Of a stretch of 64,000 nucleotides of DNA, positions 24,406 through 35,238 are shown one piece after another. Within the stretch, counting starts at the first letter, position 1; each line of letters opens with the position of its first letter. The position numbers and the translations under genes are program-made. The notes beneath the pieces are model-generated. The model saw nothing but the letters and a program-made list of their open reading frames with translations, made no database searches and was not told where the DNA came from. This stretch comes from Planctomycetota bacterium (GTDB taxonomy: Bacteria; Planctomycetota; B15-G4; JADJEK01): positions 32,001 through 96,000 of the forward strand of contig JBGAIQ010000007.1 in NCBI GenBank assembly GCA_044225365.1, read 5' to 3'.

Positions 24406-24645
24406 GGACCGTCCTCGTTTCGATGGCTGCGGATGCAGAGGTCTGCCGGGTGCCGAGACGCAGTCTCTCGGTGACGACCGGGGCCGGAAATGTACCGGAT
24501 CGATTCGGCTCGATCAGGGTTGCTCGCGAATTGGTCGGAGGATCGTTCGAGGCGTCTGCTACCTTCGGGTTGCGCGCGCGAAGCGGGGTCGGCGCGATCG
24601 AGACCCGCCGCATCACCGCGCCTTTCGACCCAGCGAGAGTCCCGA

Positions 24646-25989
24646 ATGACTCCACTCTTCGAACGCCACGACCTCGCCGACGGAATCACGCTGTATGCGG
24701 CGTCCACGGCGCGATTCAAGTCGATCGCCGTCAAGCTGCGCTTCATCGAGCCGCTCGATGCGCGCGCGGCGATGCGCGCCATCGTCGTTTCGCTGCTGCG
24801 GCGCGGGTGTGTCAGCGCTCCCGACCTGATGTCGATCGCCCGTCGCGCAGAGAGTCTCTACGGTGCTTCGTTCATGATGGACGTGGGCCGGATCGGAGAG
24901 ATGCAGGCGAGCGACTTCGGATTGCAGGTGGCGCATCCGAAGTTCCTCGACGAGCCTCGGACGCTCGTCGATTCCCTGGCGTTCCTGCGCGAATTGATCG
25001 AACAGCCGGTCCTCGAGGACGGCGGCTTTCGTGCACACGAATTCGAGCAGGAGCGATCGAATCTCCTCCGAGCGATCGCTGCGATCTTCGATGACAAAGC
25101 GTCCTGGTCGCACGTTCGACTCATCGAGTGCATGTTCGCGGGCGAACCCTATGCGAGGCTCGATCACGGCACGATCGCCGAGGTGAATTCCCTCGATCGG
25201 TGCACGTCGTGGTCGGAACATCGGAGACGAGTGCGGGAGACGCCCCTCGATCTGTTCGCGATCGGCGATCTCGGCGAGTCGCGATCCGATTCAGCGGTGC
25301 TCGATCCGTTGCGAGCAATCGGGGAGTTCGGCTCGGCGTTCTCTGCGCGAGCGTCGCGAACGCGGAGCTTCGAGTACGAGTCGGCGCCTCACGCCCCTCG
25401 ATCGCAGACTCCGCGCCAGATCGTCGAGCCGATCCAAGCTGCCGAGAGCCACCTCTTGATCGGGCATCGATTCGATGCGAAGTCCCTTGACCCTCGCGGC
25501 CAGCTCGCGATGTCGGTATTCGCGACGATGCTCGGCGGCGGGGCGCACTCGCTGTTGTTCTCCGAGCTGCGCGAACGAGCCGGCCTCGCGTATTCGACGA
25601 ACGCCCACCTCGACCGCGTGAAGGGTTTCCTCGCGGTCTATGCCGGTATCGCTCGCGATCGCTTCGAAGAAGCGCGCGATCGGATGCGGGACCTCGTGGC
25701 GCGATGTGCGAAGGGCGAGTTCGACGACGGCACCTATTCCGCGGCGATCGCGACTTTGCGACACTCGATCCGTACGGCGTTGGATTCGCCGGGTCGAGCG
25801 ATCGAATTCGCGTCTCGGGCGGTCGCCACGGGTTGGCCACCCGACCCCGTCGCATACTCGACGGTGCTCGATACATTGGATCGCGCCGCCGTCATCGAAG
25901 CCGCGAATCGCGTGCGTGAGGACGTGTGTTTCCTGGCCGCTGGAAGGACCGATGCAAACGACCGCGGAACTGAGCAAGAAACTCGATGA
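24646..25989 (+). CDS. Peptidase M16 inactive subunit, YmfF-like
   Basis: TARFKS, ESLYGA, DDKASWS, LGGGAHSLLFSELRERAGLAYS (R/Y pair); no HxxEH. Confidence 0.82.
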   Translation: MTPLFERHDLADGITLYAASTARFKSIAVKLRFIEPLDARAAMRAIVVSLLRRGCVSAPDLMSIARRAESLYGASFMMDVGRIGEMQASDFGLQVAHPKFLDEPRTLVDSLAFLRELIEQPVLEDGGFRAHEFEQERSNLLRAIAAIFDDKASWSHVRLIECMFAGEPYARLDHGTIAEVNSLDRCTSWSEHRRRVRETPLDLFAIGDLGESRSDSAVLDPLRAIGEFGSAFSARASRTRSFEYESAPHAPRSQTPRQIVEPIQAAESHLLIGHRFDAKSLDPRGQLAMSVFATMLGGGAHSLLFSELRERAGLAYSTNAHLDRVKGFLAVYAGIARDRFEEARDRMRDLVARCAKGEFDDGTYSAAIATLRHSIRTALDSPGRAIEFASRAVATGWPPDPVAYSTVLDTLDRAAVIEAANRVREDVCFLAAGRTDANDRGTEQETR

Positions 25990-27271
25990 ACCGCTCATCG
26001 CGCTGACGCACCCATCGGGAATGCGCATCCGTATCGCGAGGAAGCCCGGTTTCTCGCGAGTCCACGCCGTGTTGACCGCGCGCTTCGGATCGGTCGATCG
26101 CCGCCGGGAGAATTCGGGAAGCTCGACGGAACTGCCGGCAGGTCTCGCGCACTTCCTCGAGCATCAGATGTTCGAGGACGAGGGTGGTGACATCGCGGCG
26201 CGCTTTGCCCGGCTCGGCGCATCGTCGAACGCGTTCACATCGTTCGTCAATACGAGCTACGTCTTCGATGCGTCGGATTTCCTTCCCGAATGCCTGGACC
26301 TCCTGCTCGCGCTCGTGTTGCGACCCCATTTCACCTCGGCATCGGTCGCGAAGGAGGTCCTCGTCATCGCACGGGAGATCCGGATGGTCGAGGACGATCC
26401 AGGCGCCCGGATCTTTCAGAATCTCTTGCGCGCACTGTATTCGACCCATCCCGTTCGAGTGCCCATCGCGGGGACCGAGGCCTCGATCGCGACGATCACG
26501 CCGGAAATGCTGATGGACGCGCATCGCGCGTTCTATCGTCCCGACCATCTCGCGCTCGCGGTCGTGGGGGACGTGGATCCGAACGTCGTATTCGCAGCCG
26601 TCGACCGGGCCCTGGGGCGAGAGACGGCCACCGCCTCGGACCCTGCACCGTCGGAGATGACCGTGTCGAACGACGAGGGTTCGCCGGCCGTCGCTGAGAT
26701 TCGCGCGACGATGGAAGTCGCCCGCCCGAAGTGGCTCCTCGGTTTCAAGGATCGTGGCGTTCCGGCCGCAGGTATGCGGCTGCTCGAACGCGAGATCGCG
26801 ACCAGCATGCTTCTCGACATCCTGTTCTCCGCCTCGTCCACGGCGCACGAGGAGTGGCTGCGTTCGGGAGTGATCGACGACACGTTCGCCTACGAATACA
26901 CCGCCGAGTCGGGATTCGGATTCCTCGCATTCGCCTCGGACATCGCCGAGGCGCCCGCACGCGGAGCCTCGACTCGTCTCGAGGACGCCATCGGACGCGA
27001 GATCGAACGGGTTCGGACCGCGGGCGTCGACGAAGCGGATTTCGCGCGGATCCAGCGCCGTCAGATCGGCAGATTCGTGAGCTTCTTCGATCACCTCGAC
27101 GGACTCGCGACGGCGTTGTCGCAACTCGCGTTGTACGAACTCACGCCGCTGCATTGGATCGAGGCCGCACGTTCGATCCGTCGCGAAGATCTGGAAGCGC
27201 GTGCTTGCGACCTATTCGACCGGCGATTCGCGTCGCGTTCGCTCGTGCTCCCGTCGGGCGTGGAATCGTGA
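25952..27271 (+). CDS. Peptidase M16 zinc subunit, YmfH-like
   Basis: FGSVD, PAGLAHFLEHQMFE, GASSNAFTSF, HPVRVPIAGT, FYRP. Confidence 0.88.
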   Translation: MQTTAELSKKLDEPLIALTHPSGMRIRIARKPGFSRVHAVLTARFGSVDRRRENSGSSTELPAGLAHFLEHQMFEDEGGDIAARFARLGASSNAFTSFVNTSYVFDASDFLPECLDLLLALVLRPHFTSASVAKEVLVIAREIRMVEDDPGARIFQNLLRALYSTHPVRVPIAGTEASIATITPEMLMDAHRAFYRPDHLALAVVGDVDPNVVFAAVDRALGRETATASDPAPSEMTVSNDEGSPAVAEIRATMEVARPKWLLGFKDRGVPAAGMRLLEREIATSMLLDILFSASSTAHEEWLRSGVIDDTFAYEYTAESGFGFLAFASDIAEAPARGASTRLEDAIGREIERVRTAGVDEADFARIQRRQIGRFVSFFDHLDGLATALSQLALYELTPLHWIEAARSIRREDLEARACDLFDRRFASRSLVLPSGVES

Positions 27272-28212
27272 GCGAGGACGCGCAGATCGTATTCGTCCTC
27301 ACCGGCGAGACGGCCGTCGGCAAGAAGGACGTCGGACTCGCGATCGCCCGACGACACGACTGCGAGATCGTGGCCGTCGATTCGATCAAGGTCTACCGCG
27401 GCCTCGTGATCGGCGGCGCGCAACCCACCGCGAGCGACCTGGGCGGGATCACGGCTCATCTGATCGGAACGGTGGATCCTGGAGAATCCTTCAGCGTGGG
27501 GCGGTGGGTGAAGGAAGCGGCGCAGGCCGTCGCGGCGATCCGTCGCCGCGGAAAGCGGCCGCTCTTCCTGGGCGGCACGCCCCTCTATCTGAATGCGCTG
27601 TTACGCGGGTTCTTCGACGGCCCGGCCTCCGACCCGAAGCTGCGCGCGGAACTCGAAGGAATCGCAGACCGCGACGGCGTGCCGACTCTTCACGCTCGCT
27701 TGGAAGCCGTGGATCCGGATTCGGCGGCGTGGATCGGGAAGAACGATTCGAAACGAATCGTTCGCGCACTCGAGGTCCACGCGATGACCGGAACGCCGAT
27801 TTCGCGACTGCAGCGCGAACAGACGCGGAGGATGGTCGACGGCGAATTCAAAGTGGCCGGAATCACCGCTGCGAACGACTTCTTGAGACAGCGACAGGCT
27901 GCTCGAGTCGATCGAATGCTCGAACGCGGGCTGGTCGACGAGGTGAGGATGCTCCTCGCCGCGGGGACGCTTCGGGGTGAGGCGGCCCGCGCGATCGGTT
28001 ACCGCGAGATCATCGATCATTTGCAGGAGGGATCGAGCCTCGAAGCGGCGCGCAGCCTGATCGTGCGCAACACTTGGGAGCTGACTCGCAAGCAGCGCAA
28101 GTGGTTTCGGAAGTTGAACGAGATCACCTTCGTCGAGCGCTTGCCGACGATGTCGCTCGAGACCTTGATCGACGAAGTCGATCGCGTGCTGACCTCGGCT
28201 CGAACTGTGTGA
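27268..28212 (+). CDS. miaA: tRNA dimethylallyltransferase
   Basis: GETAVGK, DSIKVYRG, GGTPLY, RIVRALEV, AIGYRE, KQRKWF; GTGA overlap. Confidence 0.95.
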   Translation: MSEDAQIVFVLTGETAVGKKDVGLAIARRHDCEIVAVDSIKVYRGLVIGGAQPTASDLGGITAHLIGTVDPGESFSVGRWVKEAAQAVAAIRRRGKRPLFLGGTPLYLNALLRGFFDGPASDPKLRAELEGIADRDGVPTLHARLEAVDPDSAAWIGKNDSKRIVRALEVHAMTGTPISRLQREQTRRMVDGEFKVAGITAANDFLRQRQAARVDRMLERGLVDEVRMLLAAGTLRGEAARAIGYREIIDHLQEGSSLEAARSLIVRNTWELTRKQRKWFRKLNEITFVERLPTMSLETLIDEVDRVLTSARTV

Positions 28213-28223
28213 CCGGATCTTGG

Positions 28224-29450
28224 TCAGCCGCGATGTCCGATCGCGGACTCCATCTCTTCGATCATCGAAAGATACCGATCGCTGTCGCGAAGCATCGCGC
28301 GTCGCCGGTTCGGGTCCCGTTCCTCGCTCTCCGCGATCGAGCGTCGAGTCGACTCGAAGTGCGCGCGCGCCCCTTCGAGGAACTTCGACGCGAGCTTGCG
28401 ATCGGGTGACTCTGCTGGAGTGCGGAGAGTTGCTTGGACGAAGAGCGAGAGCGCCGGAATATGCCATGGCGTCTTCGCGAGGAGAGAGCGCGCTCGAACG
28501 ATCGCGGAGTCCGGCTGGTCGAGATCACCATGCGCTTGGCAAGCGAGCCACAGAAGGTCGGTCTCCCGATCTCCTGCGCCACGAGCGAGGATCCGGTCGA
28601 CTTCGTGAATGCATTGCTCCGGGTAGCCCGAAGCTCGATCGACGTAGGCCTTCACGAACGAGAGCCCGGTGTCGTCGGGACGGATCTCCACTCCGTGCGT
28701 CGCGATCTTGCGCAGCAGAAGCTCGAGCGAATGGCTCCGCGATCCCAGTTCCTCGATGACGAAAACCGCCTGTGTCACGTCGGAGGCGACGGCCGACGAC
28801 AGTTCTTCGACGGAGTCGTTGGAGTCGCCAGCGGGCCCGGCGATCGAGAGCGCGTGTCCGACTCGCCCGGCGAGCGCCCAGTCGTTTGCCTTCGCTGTCC
28901 CAATGGCGACGAGTCGATCGAAATGGAGATTGGCCGTTTCGTGATCGCCCCGCTCGAGCGCGTTGGTCCCGGCGAACCATCGCAGCTCCTCGGAGTTCGG
29001 ATGGAATCGCAACGACTGCTCGATCGTGCGCTTCGCGTCTTCGAGCTTGCCCTGCTCCGCGGCGGCTTCGCTCACCAGCAGGGCGGTCATCGGGGCGTCG
29101 GGGGCGACCACCGAAAGGCGTGCAAGGGTCTTCTCCGCAAGCGGTCGGTCGCGCTTGGCGAGGGCGACTTGATACGCCAACGCATAGAGATCGGACTGGA
29201 TCTCCGGTGAACGCGCATCCCCGAGGCCCTGGTCGAGCGCGCGATCGGCATTCGCGAGTTCGGTCTTCGACGCTTCGTCCTGATTCGCTTGGTGGAGCTG
29301 CATGGCGCGGGACATCGAAGCGCGCGCCTCATCCGAGTGAGCCGCGGCGAACCGATCCAAACTCAAAGCGCCGCACCCTGGCAGTCCCAGGAAGAATGCG
29401 GCGCCAAGAAGGACCGGCCCGCGGCGATCGTAACGCCGGCGGGTGATCAT
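28224..29450 (-). CDS. Putative TPR-like helical lipoprotein
   Basis: Basic N-terminus, hydrophobic stretch and LPGC lipobox-like site; Ala/Leu helical repeats (AKRTIEQSLRFHPNS). Confidence 0.65.
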   Translation of the reverse strand: MITRRRYDRRGPVLLGAAFFLGLPGCGALSLDRFAAAHSDEARASMSRAMQLHQANQDEASKTELANADRALDQGLGDARSPEIQSDLYALAYQVALAKRDRPLAEKTLARLSVVAPDAPMTALLVSEAAAEQGKLEDAKRTIEQSLRFHPNSEELRWFAGTNALERGDHETANLHFDRLVAIGTAKANDWALAGRVGHALSIAGPAGDSNDSVEELSSAVASDVTQAVFVIEELGSRSHSLELLLRKIATHGVEIRPDDTGLSFVKAYVDRASGYPEQCIHEVDRILARGAGDRETDLLWLACQAHGDLDQPDSAIVRARSLLAKTPWHIPALSLFVQATLRTPAESPDRKLASKFLEGARAHFESTRRSIAESEERDPNRRRAMLRDSDRYLSMIEEMESAIGHRG

Positions 29451-29459
29451 GACTTCAGC

Positions 29460-30161
29460 TCAGAAGCGGGGATTCTCGAGCGTGTACCGGAAGTAGGGGA
29501 GGTGGTACTTCTCGCGGAGTCGAGCACGCGTGTCGTCGTCGCCCGGATCCATTTCCGGAGAGAGCGGCGAAGCGTAGATGCTCGGCAACGCGAAGATTCC
29601 GGCGACGAAGTCGACGGCCTCGAACGGAGAGGCGTTGACGTTGAGCCCCACCCAGAACAGGTGGAGGTTCGCGCCGACGTCGCTCCAGTGGCGATCGTGG
29701 TTGTCGAGGTAGTCGGGGCCCGTGTAGGAGAACTCGTTCTCGAACAGGGTCGACGTTCCCCAGACCGGCGTGCGATTCAGCTTCACCCAGTACAGGTTGA
29801 AACCGCAGGCGACGCCGCCTTCGACACGGTCATCGCTCCACAGGCCCGCCGAGCGACGGAGCAGACCCCAGCGAGCGCCGAGGTTCATGTAGCCGCCACC
29901 CGCCTGCAGGAACTTCGTGACGTGCGCGTTCGCGAGAACGCCGTCACCGACCGAGAGGTCGCCCTGGAAGATGTCGCAGGCGTCGAGGAACCGATCCTTG
30001 GCATAGATGCCGACCTTTTCGGCACCCGTCCACTGATTGATCTCTTGCGAGTACGCCTCGAATTCCGGCGACGACGTGAACTTGTACGAGGCCTGGCATC
30101 CTGCGGCCGCGAGCAGCAGAAGCGCGCCTGCACCGGTCGTCCAATGCTTCATCAGCTTCAT
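29460..30161 (-). CDS. Lipoprotein of unknown function (beta-strand-rich; paralog of 30235-31116)
   Basis: LLLLAAAGC lipobox; motifs shared with neighbour; typical codon bias. Confidence 0.8.
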   Translation of the reverse strand: MKLMKHWTTGAGALLLLAAAGCQASYKFTSSPEFEAYSQEINQWTGAEKVGIYAKDRFLDACDIFQGDLSVGDGVLANAHVTKFLQAGGGYMNLGARWGLLRRSAGLWSDDRVEGGVACGFNLYWVKLNRTPVWGTSTLFENEFSYTGPDYLDNHDRHWSDVGANLHLFWVGLNVNASPFEAVDFVAGIFALPSIYASPLSPEMDPGDDDTRARLREKYHLPYFRYTLENPRF

Positions 30162-30234
30162 TTCGAAAGTCCTATCGAGCTAGTTCGTGAAAACGTGACC
30201 GCGGATATGCCTGGTGAACGATCGTCGACCCAGC

Positions 30235-31116
30235 TCAACGATGAGCCTTGTCGCCGCCGTACGCACCACCGACCGAGCCGGTAGCGGGGGAGAGAGTCGG
30301 GGTGAAACCATTCTCGACGCCCTCGAACTCCTCGTGGTGCCCGAACGTGGTCGGCCAGATGGTCGGCCAAATCGAGTACGAGCTGAACCGACTACGACCG
30401 TGCTTGGCGTCGTACGTCGACGGACGGGTGTCGTCGTCGGCGATGTCCGTGCCGATGTCCCACGGCATCGGATGACCCGTGAGCTCGACCGGATTCGGAT
30501 AGTTGTTCAGCGTGCCCCACACGAAGTCGAGCGCCTCGTACGGACTGAGGTTGACGTCGAAGCCGGGGAGGATGAAGAAGTAGAGAGACGCACCGAAATC
30601 GGTCCAGTGGTTGTGCTTGTCGAGGTCGATGTCGTAGCCGTGCGCGTCGAGGTAGCGACTCGCGAGCTGCGAGTTGCCACGCGACGGGACGCGGGTCATG
30701 TCGACCGAATAGTTCTGGACGAGACCGACGTTGAACCCGCCGTCGTAGTTCTCCTCGCGCCAGAGGCCCATGCCGCGGCCGATCATTCCGACCTTGTAGC
30801 CGGACCAATTGCCGTAACCGACCTCGAGGTACTTGGTGAGGTGAACGTTGATGAAGATCCAGTTGGCGAGGATCGGCGCGTAGAAGTGGTCGTGGTACTC
30901 GCCGTTCGCGGTCTTACCCCAGCCCAGATCCAACGTGAAGATGTCGCAGAAGTCGTACCCCGTGTCCTTGAGGTAGGCCATCATCTTGTCGCTGGCGCTC
31001 CAGCGATCTTCCTCGGTACGGAAGAATCGATCCTCATCCTGCGTTGACTGGCACGCACCGAGCGTTCCGAGCGTGACGAGAGACAACGCGGCTCCGAGAC
31101 GCGTAAGGGCCTTCAT
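30235..31116 (-). CDS. Lipoprotein of unknown function (beta-strand-rich; paralog of 29460-30161)
   Basis: LGTLGAC lipobox; motifs shared with neighbour. Confidence 0.8.
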   Translation of the reverse strand: MKALTRLGAALSLVTLGTLGACQSTQDEDRFFRTEEDRWSASDKMMAYLKDTGYDFCDIFTLDLGWGKTANGEYHDHFYAPILANWIFINVHLTKYLEVGYGNWSGYKVGMIGRGMGLWREENYDGGFNVGLVQNYSVDMTRVPSRGNSQLASRYLDAHGYDIDLDKHNHWTDFGASLYFFILPGFDVNLSPYEALDFVWGTLNNYPNPVELTGHPMPWDIGTDIADDDTRPSTYDAKHGRSRFSSYSIWPTIWPTTFGHHEEFEGVENGFTPTLSPATGSVGGAYGGDKAHR

Positions 31117-31254
31117 TCTTCTTCAAGCTCCAGATGAAGCGGGAAAAGCGGGGGGAAGATATTTGGTTCCGCAAGACGACCACGGGAGCGAACTCCGACC
31201 CCGGGGCGCTCTCCCACCAAGGGGAAGAGCAACGACGCGCACCACGCACCGATC

Positions 31255-31295
31255 CGGATTCCGTTGGAATCCGAACCGATCCGAACCGATCCGAT
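31255..31295. repeat. Perfect 8-bp hairpin followed by CCGAW pentamer tandem repeat
   Basis: CGGATTCC-GTT-GGAATCCG at 31255-31273; CCGAA CCGAT CCGAA CCGAT CCGAT at 31271-31295. Confidence 0.75.
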
Positions 31296-31495
31296 CAATC
31301 GATGTACGGATCGTCCCAGTCGTAGTTCATGAAGTGGCGGTCGAACGACTTGTAGACGCTCTCGGCGTCGCGGCGAACGACCTGGTAGTAACCGCGCGCG
31401 TGCGCACCCCACCAGTAAACCGAGTCGTAGTGGCAGGCGCCGAAGCAGGTCGCCACGAGGGCGACACCGAGCAGGGCCCGAAGCTTGCGAGCCAT
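31295..31495 (-). CDS. Small (66 aa) lipoprotein
   Basis: AAGGAG RBS; VATCFGAC lipobox; aromatic/acidic C-terminus DRHFMNYDWDDPYID. Confidence 0.8.
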   Translation of the reverse strand: MARKLRALLGVALVATCFGACHYDSVYWWGAHARGYYQVVRRDAESVYKSFDRHFMNYDWDDPYID

Positions 31496-31693
31496 CGCGA
31501 ATCTCCTTCAGGTCAGTCGCTCCGAAGAACGGTGTCTTCGGAATCTGGGTGACTTCGATTCTGTGTTGCTGAACTCGGCGGGGTGCGCTCGCAAAGGGAG
31601 TGATCGACCACTCGCCATCCGTTCGAACACCTCGACCCGAGCCAAGAGCCTGACAGCAAGTTCTGCCGTCGACGCCCTATATGAATCGGCGGG

Positions 31694-31721
31694 AGTGTAG
31701 CAACGCGAGTAGGGGGTTCAA
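31694..31721 (-). promoter_or_regulatory. Putative sigma70 promoter of the lipoprotein operon
   Basis: TTGAAC-N16-TACACT with extended -10 TG on the minus strand. Confidence 0.5.
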
Positions 31722-31831
31722 TCCAAAAAGAACGCCCCTTTTGACTTGCGGATCCTTCGCTTCGAGCCGTCGCGTTTCTTCTCGGCTTGCCTCGGCTATC
31801 CTGTGCCGCGATTGCCCACTGGAGCCCTTGG

Positions 31832-33556
31832 ATGACCGATCGTCGCGTCTCGCGCCGCAACTTCCTTCTGCCGATCCTCGCGGTCTCGGTAGTCGCTGCC
31901 ATCTTGCATTTTCGCCCGCGAGCGAATCGCGATGCGGGCATCAAGAACGCCGAGGATGGCACGCCGACACCGCAGGCGGAGAGTGCAACGGAGAATCGGC
32001 CGTTCGCCTTCCTGCGGAACGTCGACTTGCCGGTTCCGCCGGAGCCGGTACTGCGGCGGGGACCGATCGAGGATCGCGTCGAACGGTTGGTCGATCGCAC
32101 TCTTTGGGCGCCGCTCGACCTGCGCAATCGCGCATTGAACGAACTCGCGAGGCTCAAGAAGCCGCATGAGATCCAGCAGTTCGTCGCGCTCGCGGACCAG
32201 GAGTGGCGGCGCGATCCCCTGCGCGGATACGTGTTCCTTCCCACTCTTGCGCAGGTCCATGATCCGCGCGGAGCCCAGATCGTCGAGGAAGCGGCGACCC
32301 ATTCCTCCAACATGATCCGGGTCGAAGCCGCTCGAGCGCTCGGAACCGTCGACGATGCGGACGCGGTCGCGCGCCTCGAGACCCTGCTCTCCGATCACTA
32401 CGAAGGCGTGAGGACGGGAGCGATCCGTTCCTTGATCGACATGAAGACGCCTTCCGCGCTCGACGTCCTCGAGCGGTACGCGCAAGGCGACCCCGACGAG
32501 CGGATCAAACACGTCCTGTATCGCATCGGAGCCGACACCGAGAATCCGGACGGGATTCCCGTGCTCCGGAAGTACTTGGATTCCCCGGGGACGGCGCGAA
32601 TCGTGGCCCTGCAGATGCTCGCCAAGTTCGGAGATCCGAGCGCGCTCGACATCCTCTACGAAATGGTGGAGCACGGGGACGCCAATGCCCGACACACCGG
32701 CCTCATCGATCTCCTCGAAGCGCCGCACGATCTGATCGATCCCAAGCGTGTCCTCGATCGCCTCGAAGACGTGAGCGGCGAGAATCGTCGCGCGGCAGCC
32801 GAACTCTACTTGCGAATGGCGCAAGCGAAGGCCCTCACGGGTGAGGAAGCCGACACCGTCGCGAGGGCCCTCGAGAAGCATCTCACCGATCTCGACTACC
32901 GCGCTCGCATCGCTTCGCTCGCCGCACTCCACGCTCTCGGCCGCAAGGATCTCGTCGAGCCGTTCGAGAAGGCGATCCTCACCGCGTCGGGCCCAGGCCT
33001 GCACGACGCCCTGCAGATCACGACGGTCTGGTGCAAGGACGAGAAGGCGTTGCCCCTCGTCCTCCAACGGATCAAGGCCGACGGTAAGAGCGCTCCGATC
33101 GAGAATCGAGCGCGCCTGATCACGGCGCTCGGCGACATCAACGACGGGGCGAGCATCGACGCCTACCTCGACGTGATTCGCGAAGCGAGAGCCAACGAAC
33201 CGCGGGACGAGTCGGGCATCGAGCTGTCGAAGCGCGCAGCGCTCCACGTCTCGACTCTCGGACCTTCGATCCAAGGCAAGCTGATGGAGATCGCGCGCGA
33301 TGGTTCGGCGACGCTCGAGGCGCGCCTGCGCGCGCTCGACGGTCTGCGCGGCATCAACGGAGTCGATTGCGTCCAGGAACTCCTCGACCTCGCGGCGGAC
33401 GGGAACGCTCCGCACGAAGTTCGTCTTGCGGCGGTCGAGACGCTGCCGTTCCTCGTCGGAGTCGACATGTTCGACGCCGTCCTGGACTCGCTCGACCGGT
33501 TGGTCGATCGCGAGCTTCGATTGAAAGCGCTCTACGTCCTGCTCGATTACGCCTGA
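31832..33556 (+). CDS. HEAT-repeat protein with twin-arginine-like N-terminus
   Basis: SRRNFL plus hydrophobic stretch; repeats VEAARALG, VRTGAIRSL, VRLAAVETL; GGAG RBS. Confidence 0.82.
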   Translation: MTDRRVSRRNFLLPILAVSVVAAILHFRPRANRDAGIKNAEDGTPTPQAESATENRPFAFLRNVDLPVPPEPVLRRGPIEDRVERLVDRTLWAPLDLRNRALNELARLKKPHEIQQFVALADQEWRRDPLRGYVFLPTLAQVHDPRGAQIVEEAATHSSNMIRVEAARALGTVDDADAVARLETLLSDHYEGVRTGAIRSLIDMKTPSALDVLERYAQGDPDERIKHVLYRIGADTENPDGIPVLRKYLDSPGTARIVALQMLAKFGDPSALDILYEMVEHGDANARHTGLIDLLEAPHDLIDPKRVLDRLEDVSGENRRAAAELYLRMAQAKALTGEEADTVARALEKHLTDLDYRARIASLAALHALGRKDLVEPFEKAILTASGPGLHDALQITTVWCKDEKALPLVLQRIKADGKSAPIENRARLITALGDINDGASIDAYLDVIREARANEPRDESGIELSKRAALHVSTLGPSIQGKLMEIARDGSATLEARLRALDGLRGINGVDCVQELLDLAADGNAPHEVRLAAVETLPFLVGVDMFDAVLDSLDRLVDRELRLKALYVLLDYA

Positions 33557-33576
33557 GACCCCGGGAGGATCGAGGT

Positions 33577-34320
33577 TCAGGTCTTCTTCTTGCCCTTGAG
33601 TTCGCGTGCGGCGGGTGTCTCGATCTCGCCGAGCACATCGTCGAATGGAAACCACTCCGATGTCTTGCTCTGACTATCGGCTTCGCGGAAATCCTTCCCG
33701 GGATTGATGGTCGGCGGGAACGGCGAGTGATAGCCGTCGAACGCACCCTTGTGGTTCCAACTCCCGAGGACGGTGCCGCGGTGATCGACGAAGAAGGCCC
33801 ACTGCGTGCCTTCCTGATAGTTCTCCGGCCAGGCGAACGCGCCGTATGCCGTCGTACCGGGCTCCTTCGATTCCGCGCCCTTGGGAGACCAAGCGCGACC
33901 ATCGTTGCGGATCGGATCGTTGAGGAAGACGGTGACGAGGTAGCCGCGGATGCGATAGACCTCGACGTTCGCGTTCGGGCAATCCTCCGCGCGAGTGAGT
34001 CGCCGGAGCGGCGAGGTCTCCGGGGACTTCTCGATCAACTCCGAGAGGAATAGGAAGCGCGTACCGGTAGTCCCGATCGCTGCCTGTTCGCCCTGATGGA
34101 TGGCGCGCACGACGTCATACGCTCGACGCTCACGATCGGCCATCGAGCGGCCCTGCGTCTCCGCGCCGAGGATGTGGAACCCGATCCATGTGAGGATGAC
34201 GAGCACCGAGATCTCGGTCGAATAACGCCCGAGTCGCTCGAGGAAGGATTTCGTTCCGATGTTCGTGGCAACCATGAAGAGTACCGTGGCGGAGTGTTCG
34301 TCGCCGTTCGAACGGCTCAC
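33577..34320 (-). CDS. Single-TM hypothetical protein, pilin/DUF2950-like C-terminal motif
   Basis: N-terminal TM helix, long amphipathic helix, RGY, AFAWPENY..FFVDHRG. Start uncertain (34320 or 34275). Confidence 0.55.
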   Translation of the reverse strand: MSRSNGDEHSATVLFMVATNIGTKSFLERLGRYSTEISVLVILTWIGFHILGAETQGRSMADRERRAYDVVRAIHQGEQAAIGTTGTRFLFLSELIEKSPETSPLRRLTRAEDCPNANVEVYRIRGYLVTVFLNDPIRNDGRAWSPKGAESKEPGTTAYGAFAWPENYQEGTQWAFFVDHRGTVLGSWNHKGAFDGYHSPFPPTINPGKDFREADSQSKTSEWFPFDDVLGEIETPAARELKGKKKT

Positions 34321-34329
34321 GTTCGCTCG

Positions 34330-35238
34330 TCACGAGGGAGGGAACGCCCGTACGAAAGCGCGGGCGAGGGGAAACATCAAGAGGATGATGCCGCTGATGA
34401 GAAGATCGTCAGCTGCGGCCGCGATCGTCGCATCGAAGAGGAAGATCCCGGAGAGGCAGCGTCCGACGTAGCGAGAAAGGCGCAGGCCCGGAACGATCGG
34501 TTCGCGCACGAGCGCAAAGTAACCGCTCGCGATCCACCCGGCGAGACCGCTGGCGCAGATGAGCGCGGCGACGACCGCGCGCGTTCTCGCATCGCCTGCG
34601 AGGAGTTCGAGGACTACTGCGACGAAAGCAAGGAGCGCGGCGATCCCGCTCGCGATCGCGACGCCGCGTGAGGTCGGTCTAAGGGCCCCGTCCTCCATCC
34701 GGCCGATGAACGCCACCGCGACGATGTACGCCCCGTACGCGATCGCCACGGGAAATGCGGCACGAGCATCTCCGCCCGCCGCGGCGCCGAGCGTGAGATT
34801 CAGCGCACGAATCGATCCCAGGACGAACGGGCCGGCGAGTCCGAGGTGGTGGGGTCTCGCGTTGTACGTCGTGATGAGCGACAGCATCACGATCGACAGG
34901 ATGAACGCTGCGGTTCCGGCAAGCGCCGCCGCGGAGGCCGCGATGCACGCCTGAACGACGACGAACGTGCTCGCCGCGGCGACTGAGACGGCGCCCGAGG
35001 GCAGCGGCCTACCTTCGGCGCGCATACGATCGACCTCGCGGTCGCACAGATCGTTATGCGCCATCCCGAACAGGAAGAGCGCCAGCGATGCGGTTAAGGC
35101 CGCGACGATCGCGCCGCCATCGACGCGGCCTCCGCTCGCGCGGAGCGCGAGCGCCGAGCCCGCGAGCCCATCGGCGAGGGGAGACAGCGCGAGCGAGGCT
35201 CGCGACAACTTGAGGATTCCCCGCAGAGTGGTTCCCAT
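34330..35238 (-). CDS. UbiA-family prenyltransferase (EboC/SCO3242-like)
   Basis: NDLCDREVD..RPLPSG Asp-rich motif, GSIRALNLTLG, multiple TM helices. Confidence 0.87.
   Translation of the reverse strand: MGTTLRGILKLSRASLALSPLADGLAGSALALRASGGRVDGGAIVAALTASLALFLFGMAHNDLCDREVDRMRAEGRPLPSGAVSVAAASTFVVVQACIAASAAALAGTAAFILSIVMLSLITTYNARPHHLGLAGPFVLGSIRALNLTLGAAAGGDARAAFPVAIAYGAYIVAVAFIGRMEDGALRPTSRGVAIASGIAALLAFVAVVLELLAGDARTRAVVAALICASGLAGWIASGYFALVREPIVPGLRLSRYVGRCLSGIFLFDATIAAAADDLLISGIILLMFPLARAFVRAFPPS

Follow-up and report, generated by a model that had tools for sequence, protein, structure and literature searches.

The 64,000-nucleotide (nt) stretch of planctomycete contig JBGAIQ010000007.1 analysed here (the window, in whose positions all coordinates are given) carries a cluster of four genes that the original prediction, made from the letters alone, had described as a co-oriented operon of lipobox-type genes for a candidate undescribed envelope pore or assembly complex. 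The open reading frame (ORF) list reproduces the coordinates, lengths and minus-strand orientation of the four frames, which encode 66, 293, 233 and 408 amino acids (aa), and all four genes are real. The first, pep66 (31295..31495, minus strand), encodes a small lipoprotein-type protein of 66 aa with a signal peptide, a cysteine at position 21 and the ending DRHFMNYDWDDPYID. It is followed on the same strand by A293 (30235..31116), a 293-aa lipoprotein with Cys22 and the longer paralogue of a family that resembles the Leptospira lipoprotein LIC13411; by B233 (29460..30161), the highly conserved 233-aa paralogue, also with Cys22; and by TPR408 (28224..29450), a 408-aa lipoprotein with Cys26 in a box LPGC and a predicted all-alpha TPR-type solenoid. 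The intergenic gaps between pep66 and A293, A293 and B233, and B233 and TPR408 are 178, 73 and 9 nt, the last placing the TPR408 ATG 9 nt past the B233 stop. The motif GGAG lies 8 nt 5' of the pep66 ATG and AGGA about 10 nt 5' of the B233 start. A promoter-like block (31689..31735, minus strand) is found 5' of pep66, and at the other end of the cluster TPR408 converges on miaA (IPPT; 27286-28212, plus strand).

All four N-termini have a basic stretch, a hydrophobic stretch and then a cysteine. Using a scripted lipobox rule of the PROSITE-PS51257 type, we found that A293 and B233 satisfy the strict form at Cys22, whereas pep66 (FGAC) and TPR408 (LPGC) fail it, which is a point against counting all four among the lipoproteins. 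The cysteine of pep66 is invariant in 12/12 aligned orthologues, that of TPR408 is kept in 11/12 (the twelfth row is without its N-terminus), and many orthologues of both proteins have canonical lipoboxes. The genome also encodes Lgt (205.9 bits), LspA (126 bits) and an Omp85 protein, all above their cut-offs. With a lipobox-type cysteine in each protein and Lgt and LspA in the genome, the four have the sequence hallmarks of bacterial lipoproteins processed by the Sec/signal peptidase II route. The database copy of TPR408 (P0064) is 363 aa long; it starts at Met46 and so loses the signal peptide and the cysteine (window 29313-29450). The upstream ATG at 29450 is favoured because the box ..GCG.FG is conserved among the TPR orthologues, which are otherwise only 14-43% identical.

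A293 and B233 are paralogues, as had been proposed: BLASTP aligned them with 71 identical residues of 225 (32%, E 5e-26), and all seven shared motifs that had been listed for the pair can be read in both. Relative to B233, the first strand of A293 has 17 inserted residues and the C-terminus an extension with WPTIWPTT. This extension (30235-30400, minus strand) is shared by the A293 orthologues as the motif S.YS.WPTIWPTT.G.HEE.EG followed by a Gly-rich tail, and B233 has none. Neither protein matched a Pfam or NCBIfam family at E<=1, the 36 members collected in the family alignment (A1) gave no Pfam match save one weak LPAM_MltD, and the A1 profile returned a single chance match (E 1.4) from the PDB sequences. 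The 30 ESM Atlas clusters nearest to B233 are all unnamed Planctomycetota proteins. A word-indexed search with B233 returned 25 proteins, 24 of them full-length at 63-92% identity, all from Planctomycetes metagenome-assembled genomes (MAGs) and named only 'hypothetical protein', while an exhaustive phmmer search with A293 against 1.84 billion representatives retrieved 36 proteins at E<=1e-3, of which 8 reached E<=1e-10. In the literature on LIC13411 and on Planctomycetes outer-membrane lipoprotein proteomes we did not see the family described, other names not being covered by that search.

The family is nevertheless widespread. B233 is present in 11/11 genomes of the same taxonomic family (f1), within which A293 orthologues are about 47-55% identical; a family match was found in 37/41 genomes of the order, and the A1 profile detected the family in 44 of 121 evenly drawn genomes of the phylum at E<=1e-8. 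A scan for related loci with the single protein gave 7 loci, all from MAGs labelled Planctomycetota or Phycisphaeraceae. The genome studied here has eight copies. Six of them, all except A293 and B233, are singletons, one of which, on contig C45, follows a gene for a 382-aa TPR lipoprotein and a 97-aa ORF. At least 5 of the 44 positive genomes (G000, G002, G013, G050 and G103) have tandem pairs, defined as two matches on the same strand with less than 300 bp between them. At another copy (G000 C22:47026-49634) a 271-aa distant paralogue overlaps the end of a gene for a 598-aa dynamin-family GTPase, its start lying 4 bp ahead of that gene's stop; the overlap suggests co-translation with a membrane-remodelling protein. 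In A1 the residues D60, D63, T82, G88 and D184 (B233 numbering) are invariant, and D56, R103, Y124, H158, P179, F185, D205, D209 and D210 are among the near-invariant ones. Thus a family found in about a third of the sampled Planctomycetota, with up to 19 matches per genome, stands without a Pfam model, a name or a solved structural neighbour.

The terminal motifs had been likened to the LIC13411-type lipoproteins of Leptospira, and this resemblance was borne out. The NCBIfam model NF047817 ('LIC13411 family adhesin') matches 9 of the 36 A1 members at E<=0.01, the best at 4.4e-9. The scores of these matches (16.3-36.8 bits) lie far from the equivalog cut-off of 150 bits, which neither A293, B233 nor any scanned family member reaches. 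Eight of the nine matches cover about positions 169-210 of the 210-position model, where the final strand, the SP.EA.DF..G helix and the motif D...DD lie; the ninth, P0052, matches positions 1-67, which include the Y..DR..D..DI helix. Across the phylum NF047817 was matched in 22/121 genomes at E<=1e-3 and in 0/14 controls, with a best score of 38.1 bits and 0/121 above the cut-off. In the genome studied here it matches only three distant paralogues, weakly (E 0.047-0.93). The B233 orthologue profile (A2) aligned by hhalign with the NF047817-matching subgroup (A7) at 99.9% probability (E 1.4e-34) over 135 columns, B233 residues 50-192. The terminal motifs are thus shared with NF047817 through family members, and for A293 and B233 transitively. 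The proteins also agree in type and size, with a signal of the Lsp type and a length of about 210-230 aa (mature B233 has 212 aa). On these profile comparisons the planctomycete family is a distant relative of the LIC13411 adhesin family and not a member of it. Tandem arrays or expansions of LIC13411-like members are seen elsewhere as well (G054:C91:67839-72815, G065, G095:C169, G121:C44 and G066:C2); G065 has 19 NF047817 matches, and up to four copies stand on one contig elsewhere in Planctomycetota.

LIC13411 itself has been characterised in Leptospira. PMC4183468 describes it as a putative Lsp-cleaved lipoprotein of 24.6 kDa that occurs in saprophytic as well as pathogenic Leptospira and partitions into the Triton X-114 detergent fraction. 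There, PRED-TMBB scored it as having 'no beta-barrel motif', and the protein was soluble as a maltose-binding protein (MBP) fusion and bound VE-cadherin with a dissociation constant (KD) of 0.4 nM. Its production in L. biflexa raises tissue binding, according to PMC11350617 and PMC9354625.

The AlphaFold model of B233, built from A1 (36 rows), reached a predicted local distance difference test score (pLDDT) of 87.7 and a predicted TM score (pTM) of 0.75. In it, six long amphipathic strands (65-80, 85-101, 104-119, 125-135, 144-149 and 162-177) are predicted to form a curved antiparallel meander, which amphipathic helices at the N- and C-terminal ends clasp; the model has helices at 32-42, 46-62, 179-190, 192-195 and 211-218. 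The conserved aspartates D56, D60, D63, D184, D205, D209 and D210 sit, in this model, on the clasping helices, and D56, D60 and D63 share one face of helix 46-62. Foldseek found nothing in the PDB at E<=0.001 (best E 0.048, TM 0.14-0.15), and VIA-align against 48,161 chains gave 0 at Z>=5; its top row was the TamB beta-taco (Z 4.7, root-mean-square deviation (rmsd) 5.5, 83 aligned residues), with small soluble barrels in the rows after it. By the calibration of the tool itself the B233 model is unusually unmatched, with no solved neighbour.

The original prediction had read the segments between the motifs as Gly/aromatic-rich alternating strands, and these are indeed seen in both model and composition: in the strands of A293 and B233 hydrophobic residues strictly alternate with polar ones or Gly, and the mature proteins are acidic, with 9-11% Gly and 15-16% aromatic residues. 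From this it had proposed that A293 and B233 oligomerise into a lipidated beta-barrel channel of the outer membrane, in which pep66 and TPR408 would have an accessory or assembly role. The long strands, their alternation and the enrichment in Gly and aromatics are what such a channel would have, 12 of the 50 listed weak VIA rows are membrane barrels (among them NalP, KdgM, Omp33, NspA, TamA, BcsC and designed transmembrane barrels, Z 3.5-4.2), and the tandem pairs in at least 5/44 positive genomes would suit a hetero-oligomer. However, no barrel matched at Z 5, the chain continues beyond the last strand, and the C-terminus lacks a conserved aromatic signal. The 'inside-out' signature of a membrane sheet was likewise not significant, positions on the polar face being not significantly more conserved than those on the hydrophobic face (p 0.20; 0.55 without Gly). 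The four proteins belong to no porin, CsgG or outer-membrane protein family of Pfam or NCBIfam, and the 36 family members also gave no Pfam match to CsgG or porin families. The six singleton paralogues in this genome and the behaviour of LIC13411 described above, soluble as an MBP fusion and predicted to be without a barrel motif (PMC4183468), point in the same direction. We therefore found no positive support for the claimed hetero-oligomeric channel, no solved barrel or pore being matched above Z 4.7, and regard it as quite improbable. A complex prediction for A293 (residues 22-250, alignment A3) with B233 (22-233, A2) gave two scores of 0.00, the mark being 0.32, a comparison made without controls that speaks neither for nor against binding.

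The same structural searches bring up a different reading, in which A293 and B233 would be lipid-binding or lipid-transfer half-barrels, similar to LolB, LprG or the TamB beta-taco, and acyl chains would lie in a groove formed by the hydrophobic side of the curved sheet. Consistent with this, one face of each strand is hydrophobic throughout, the best neighbour, though weak, is the TamB beta-taco, and PRELID1, SLMO1 and, by Foldseek, LolB, LprG and LprF are among the weak rows. All of these matches are under the level at which they would be meaningful, however, and the invariant residues of the family are acidic or polar rather than hydrophobic, so that we hold this reading to be improbable, if a little less so than the channel. 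Those same residues raise the possibility of an envelope enzyme, a small outer-membrane protein rich in beta structure and comparable to PagP, PagL or LpxR, that uses the invariant Asp, Thr and His and possibly a divalent cation; D56, D60, D63, T82, D184, R103, H158, D205, D209 and D210 are unusually many conserved polar residues for a structural lipoprotein. Against it, the Pfam, NCBIfam, PDB profile, Foldseek and VIA searches revealed no enzyme family that the proteins resemble in sequence or fold, and the only characterised relative is a binding protein, and enzymatic activity is in our view the most improbable of the functions considered.

TPR408 had been called TPR-like, a label that is correct structurally. 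It has six TPR-type matches in Pfam, all below the cut-off (the best, TPR_16, at 20.1 vs 32.7 bits), and against PrsT, PgaA, BcsC and SctY it scores far below the cut-offs. Its AlphaFold model, from a 12-row alignment (A4), has a pLDDT of 91.4, a pTM of 0.81 and 19 helices only, and Foldseek matched it to 115 PDB chains at E<=0.001; the matches listed are helical-repeat proteins, mostly of the TPR type. Among those listed, LbcA (7rqf, E 3.2e-5, TMq 0.39) is the bacterial lipoprotein that matches best. By its model, then, TPR408 is a solenoid of helix-turn-helix repeats, recognised by structure and not by a Pfam gathering score.

Pep66 is of a different kind. Its tail is conserved as DRHF-NYDWDDPY, and C21, D52, R53, D59, W60, D62 and P63 are invariant. 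No Pfam or NCBIfam family matched it at E<=1, and its profile (A6) found only chance-level matches among the PDB sequences, the best (E 0.0047) being to a designed repeat protein. Its 30 nearest ESM Atlas clusters are all unnamed Planctomycetota, the named clusters (the small lipoproteins Rz1 and VirB7) reaching at most 0.81. It was found in 36/41 genomes of the order and in 54/121 of those sampled across the phylum, 52 of the 54 having one match each. The miaA gene adjoins pep66, convergent or adjacent, in 10/10 further order-level loci and in 3/12 distant loci, an M16 peptidase pair lies nearby in 9/10 of the order-level loci, and in three loci of the taxonomic family f4 only 46-235 nt separate pep66 from miaA. 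By this distribution pep66 is a phylum-wide, single-copy small lipoprotein anciently linked to miaA. With its invariant tail and its presence in about 45% of the sampled phylum genomes it becomes a candidate core component of the envelope.

Upstream of pep66, the original prediction had placed a promoter at 31694-31721. The block found there consists of a T-run, a -35-like TTGAAC (31721-31716), a 16-nt spacer ending in CGTTGC, a -10-like TACACT (31699-31694) and TCCCGC. A generic sigma-70 scan of 27500-32500 returned no site, TTGAAC-N16-TACACT being missed because it scores 8/12. In an alignment of the pep66 upstream regions (columns 56-102) the T-run, TTGA.C, CGTTGCTA and TCCCGC are invariant in 8/8 genomes of family f1, and the sequence flanking 31689-31735 cannot be aligned among the same eight. 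Since it is invariant in all of them, the element at 31689-31735 is more than chance and under selection. The claimed promoter thus lies inside a conserved block on which the generic scan is silent, and a promoter directed toward pep66 is the simplest interpretation of the element. The four genes are probably transcribed from this one conserved promoter in this genome. A terminator scan found two overlapping weak hairpins 3' of pep66 (2 vs a shuffle mean of 3.7). Contigs of one metatranscriptome library, which may contain DNA, cover 13/30 bins of the locus and are 95-99% alike on parts of A293 and B233, which is not proof of transcription. None of them lies on pep66 or TPR408 or bridges two genes by 31 letters, and in a single library such absence of cover proves nothing. 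Other runs had only small shares and were not taken as evidence of habitat.

Comparison with other genomes revealed how the cluster is put together. The order pep66-(A)-B-TPR-miaA is shared by 8 of the 11 other f1 genomes and by one genome of family f5 (G015), where a pep66-like gene, a B-like gene, the gene for a 406-aa helical lipoprotein and miaA follow each other in the same order. Of 12 loci with a B233 orthologue, nine have pep66 directly upstream, the exceptions being three genomes of genus g6, in which A and B lie together 160 kb from pep66 or on another contig and pep66 and the TPR lipoprotein stay beside miaA (L024). Two genomes of genus g4 have pep66-B-TPR without A. A lipoprotein ORF of 357-437 aa occupies the gap between pep66 and miaA in L024, L030, L031, L032 and L033. 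Further afield, A293 or B233 stands beside pep66 in 0/10 further order-level loci, and neither a family member nor a match to a TPR hidden Markov model (HMM) was found near pep66 in the 12 distant loci of the phylum (L066-L077). Conversely, pep66 was near 0/12 distant family loci. In 4 of these 12 the family member is directly followed by a TPR-like lipoprotein of 213-241 aa (TPR HMM, E 7.6e-15 to 7.4e-7). At L057-L060 (G149, G073, G126 and G102), in another lineage, a second conserved arrangement is seen: a family member, then a 213-241-aa TPR-like lipoprotein, convergent with an ssb-like gene. A293 and B233 thus stand between pep66 and the TPR gene only in part of one taxonomic family, save for the B-like gene in G015. 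These gene orders indicate that the cluster is lineage-specific and built from three evolutionarily independent modules (pep66, the tandem paralogues A293 and B233, and the rapidly evolving TPR408), and is not one ancient operon. A four-gene complex inherited together is not supported by this comparison, pep66 and TPR staying at miaA with A and B 160 kb away and pep66 occurring without A/B in 10/10 loci and without the family in 12/12. The original prediction had itself proposed failure of the genes to co-occur elsewhere as a refutation, and this came about in part: in those 10/10 and 12/12 loci pep66 has, respectively, no A293 or B233 and no family member beside it.

Such a history is also what would be expected if the four were mere neighbours, that is, envelope lipoproteins that serve separate, unrelated functions, happen to point the same way in this lineage and form no complex. 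This is the main sober alternative. It would account for a single-copy, phylum-wide pep66 without family members or A293/B233 beside it, for the relocation of A and B without pep66 or TPR in genus g6, for the g4 genomes without A at the locus, and for unlike rates of divergence: within f1, pep66 orthologues are about 77% identical and those of A293 about 50%, and in a strain-level contig set TPR408 differs at 96/1176 positions vs 29/1257 for A/B. Yet the same order, with a B-like gene between pep66 and TPR, is kept in two families, f1 and f5, the B233 stop and the TPR408 start are only 9 nt apart, and a family member and a TPR lipoprotein are again paired in 4/12 distant loci and on contig C45. 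Taking both sides together, we consider unrelated neighbours unlikely, but the most serious of the alternatives.

The reading that we prefer, with the scales about level as to whether it is right, is that A293 and B233 are binding modules anchored to the outer membrane that work with a TPR scaffold. All four proteins would be lipid-anchored to the outer membrane; A293 and B233, by analogy with LIC13411, would be binding modules rather than a pore; and the TPR solenoid would serve them as a scaffold or receptor, and might perhaps also bind the conserved acidic-aromatic tail of pep66, an attractive ligand for it, the last being pure conjecture. We infer the outer-membrane location, the binding function and the TPR partnership for this locus. 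The reading is favoured because the sole characterised relative is a lipoprotein that partitions into the detergent phase and has a soluble domain able to bind a ligand, because a TPR lipoprotein recurs beside family members in three separate contexts, and because TPR solenoids typically hold peptide or protein clients.

Several observations weigh against binding modules on a TPR scaffold. A293 and B233 had no match to NF047817 at E<=1, and neither was among its matches in a six-frame search of the genome; at the level of profiles their link to LIC13411 is transitive and runs mostly through about 40 C-terminal profile positions. Eight of the 12 distant family loci are without a TPR neighbour, and the five paralogues of this genome outside C45 lie in unrelated contexts, for instance near genes for an acyl-CoA dehydrogenase, a dynamin-like GTPase or a FemAB-like protein. 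B233 is 70-92% conserved across genera, which would suit a housekeeping component better than a diversifying adhesin, and the strand alternation and Gly/aromatic content fit a membrane-embedded sheet as well.

In the boldest reading, proteins of the A293/B233 type could be subunits of an unseen lipid-anchored assembly of amphipathic beta-sheets in the outer membrane, a channel or surface lattice present in Planctomycetota and, by way of LIC13411, in spirochaetes; the tandem paralogues would form its hetero-oligomers, with the TPR lipoprotein and pep66 as assembly factors. We give such an assembly as little credence as the channel. Were it true, the Leptospira 'adhesin' would be a moonlighting member of an ancient family of envelope structures with a new fold. 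Planctomycete envelopes are poorly understood, so the proteins described here offer concrete targets, while the claim of a new pore is unsupported.

The cluster lies within a block conserved across the order (24490-35238), with the gene order two M16 peptidase genes, miaA, [TPR lipoprotein, pep66], a HEAT-repeat protein, a 247-aa protein and a UbiA-family prenyltransferase. In the window the 589-aa HEAT-repeat protein is encoded at 31787-33556 (plus strand), the 247-aa protein, which is without a Pfam family, at 33577-34320 (minus) and the prenyltransferase at 34330-35238 (minus). Rfam gave no match at the gathering score within 27000-33000, and the locus has no protease, porin or polysaccharide genes. 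The spacer between pep66 and A293 contains short GATCGG/TTCGGA repeats (31262-31285) and has several small deletions in the contig X5 of a related strain, and is thus a hypervariable intergenic stretch.

Among known systems, the original prediction had drawn an analogy with CsgE/F/G, whose genes likewise group a small accessory protein with a lipoprotein and a partner, the lipidated CsgG forming an oligomeric barrel. The likeness in gene layout stands; the analogy goes no further, there being no sequence or fold similarity, the four genes here not being co-inherited and oligomerisation being hypothetical. With the TamB beta-taco and small outer-membrane barrels the B233 model has in common a curved antiparallel sheet of long amphipathic strands, although in the first dozen rows the matches (Z <=4.7, rmsd >=4.8 A, 66-105 residues) are below the level of a shared fold.

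TPR lipoproteins act as adaptors or scaffolds in several envelope systems, such as NlpI-Prc, BamD, AlgK-AlgE and PelB-PelC. Like TPR408, adaptors of this type, for example in LbcA-CtpA, are lipid-anchored TPR solenoids encoded beside the presumed client. The similarity of TPR408 to them is of the generic TPR kind, no Pfam or NCBIfam cut-off being reached, and genes of the protease, porin or polysaccharide type are not part of its locus.

The closest comparison is with LIC13411. Like the planctomycete family, it is a single-domain lipoprotein of the Lsp type with about 210-230 residues, and the two have in common the C-terminal module (last strand, SP.EA.DF..G and D...DD) and, in one member, the N-terminal Y..DR..D..DI. 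According to PMC4183468, LIC13411 fractionates with the outer membrane or the detergent phase in Leptospira, where it is found in free-living saprophytes and pathogens. The planctomycete proteins belong to a different phylum and score 12.9-38.1 bits against the cut-off of 150. Unlike LIC13411 they are multi-copy (eight here, up to 19 matches per genome), occur in tandem pairs and are often followed by a TPR lipoprotein. Binding to cadherin has no obvious counterpart in a free-living bacterium, and the link between the two families suggests that the ancestral role of LIC13411 was an envelope function rather than host binding. What is new here is an unnamed family without Pfam coverage and with a confidently predicted fold that has no solved neighbour; what was known is the named lipoprotein family of which it is a distant branch. 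LIC13411, in turn, gains hundreds of free-living relatives and a high-confidence hypothesis for its fold.

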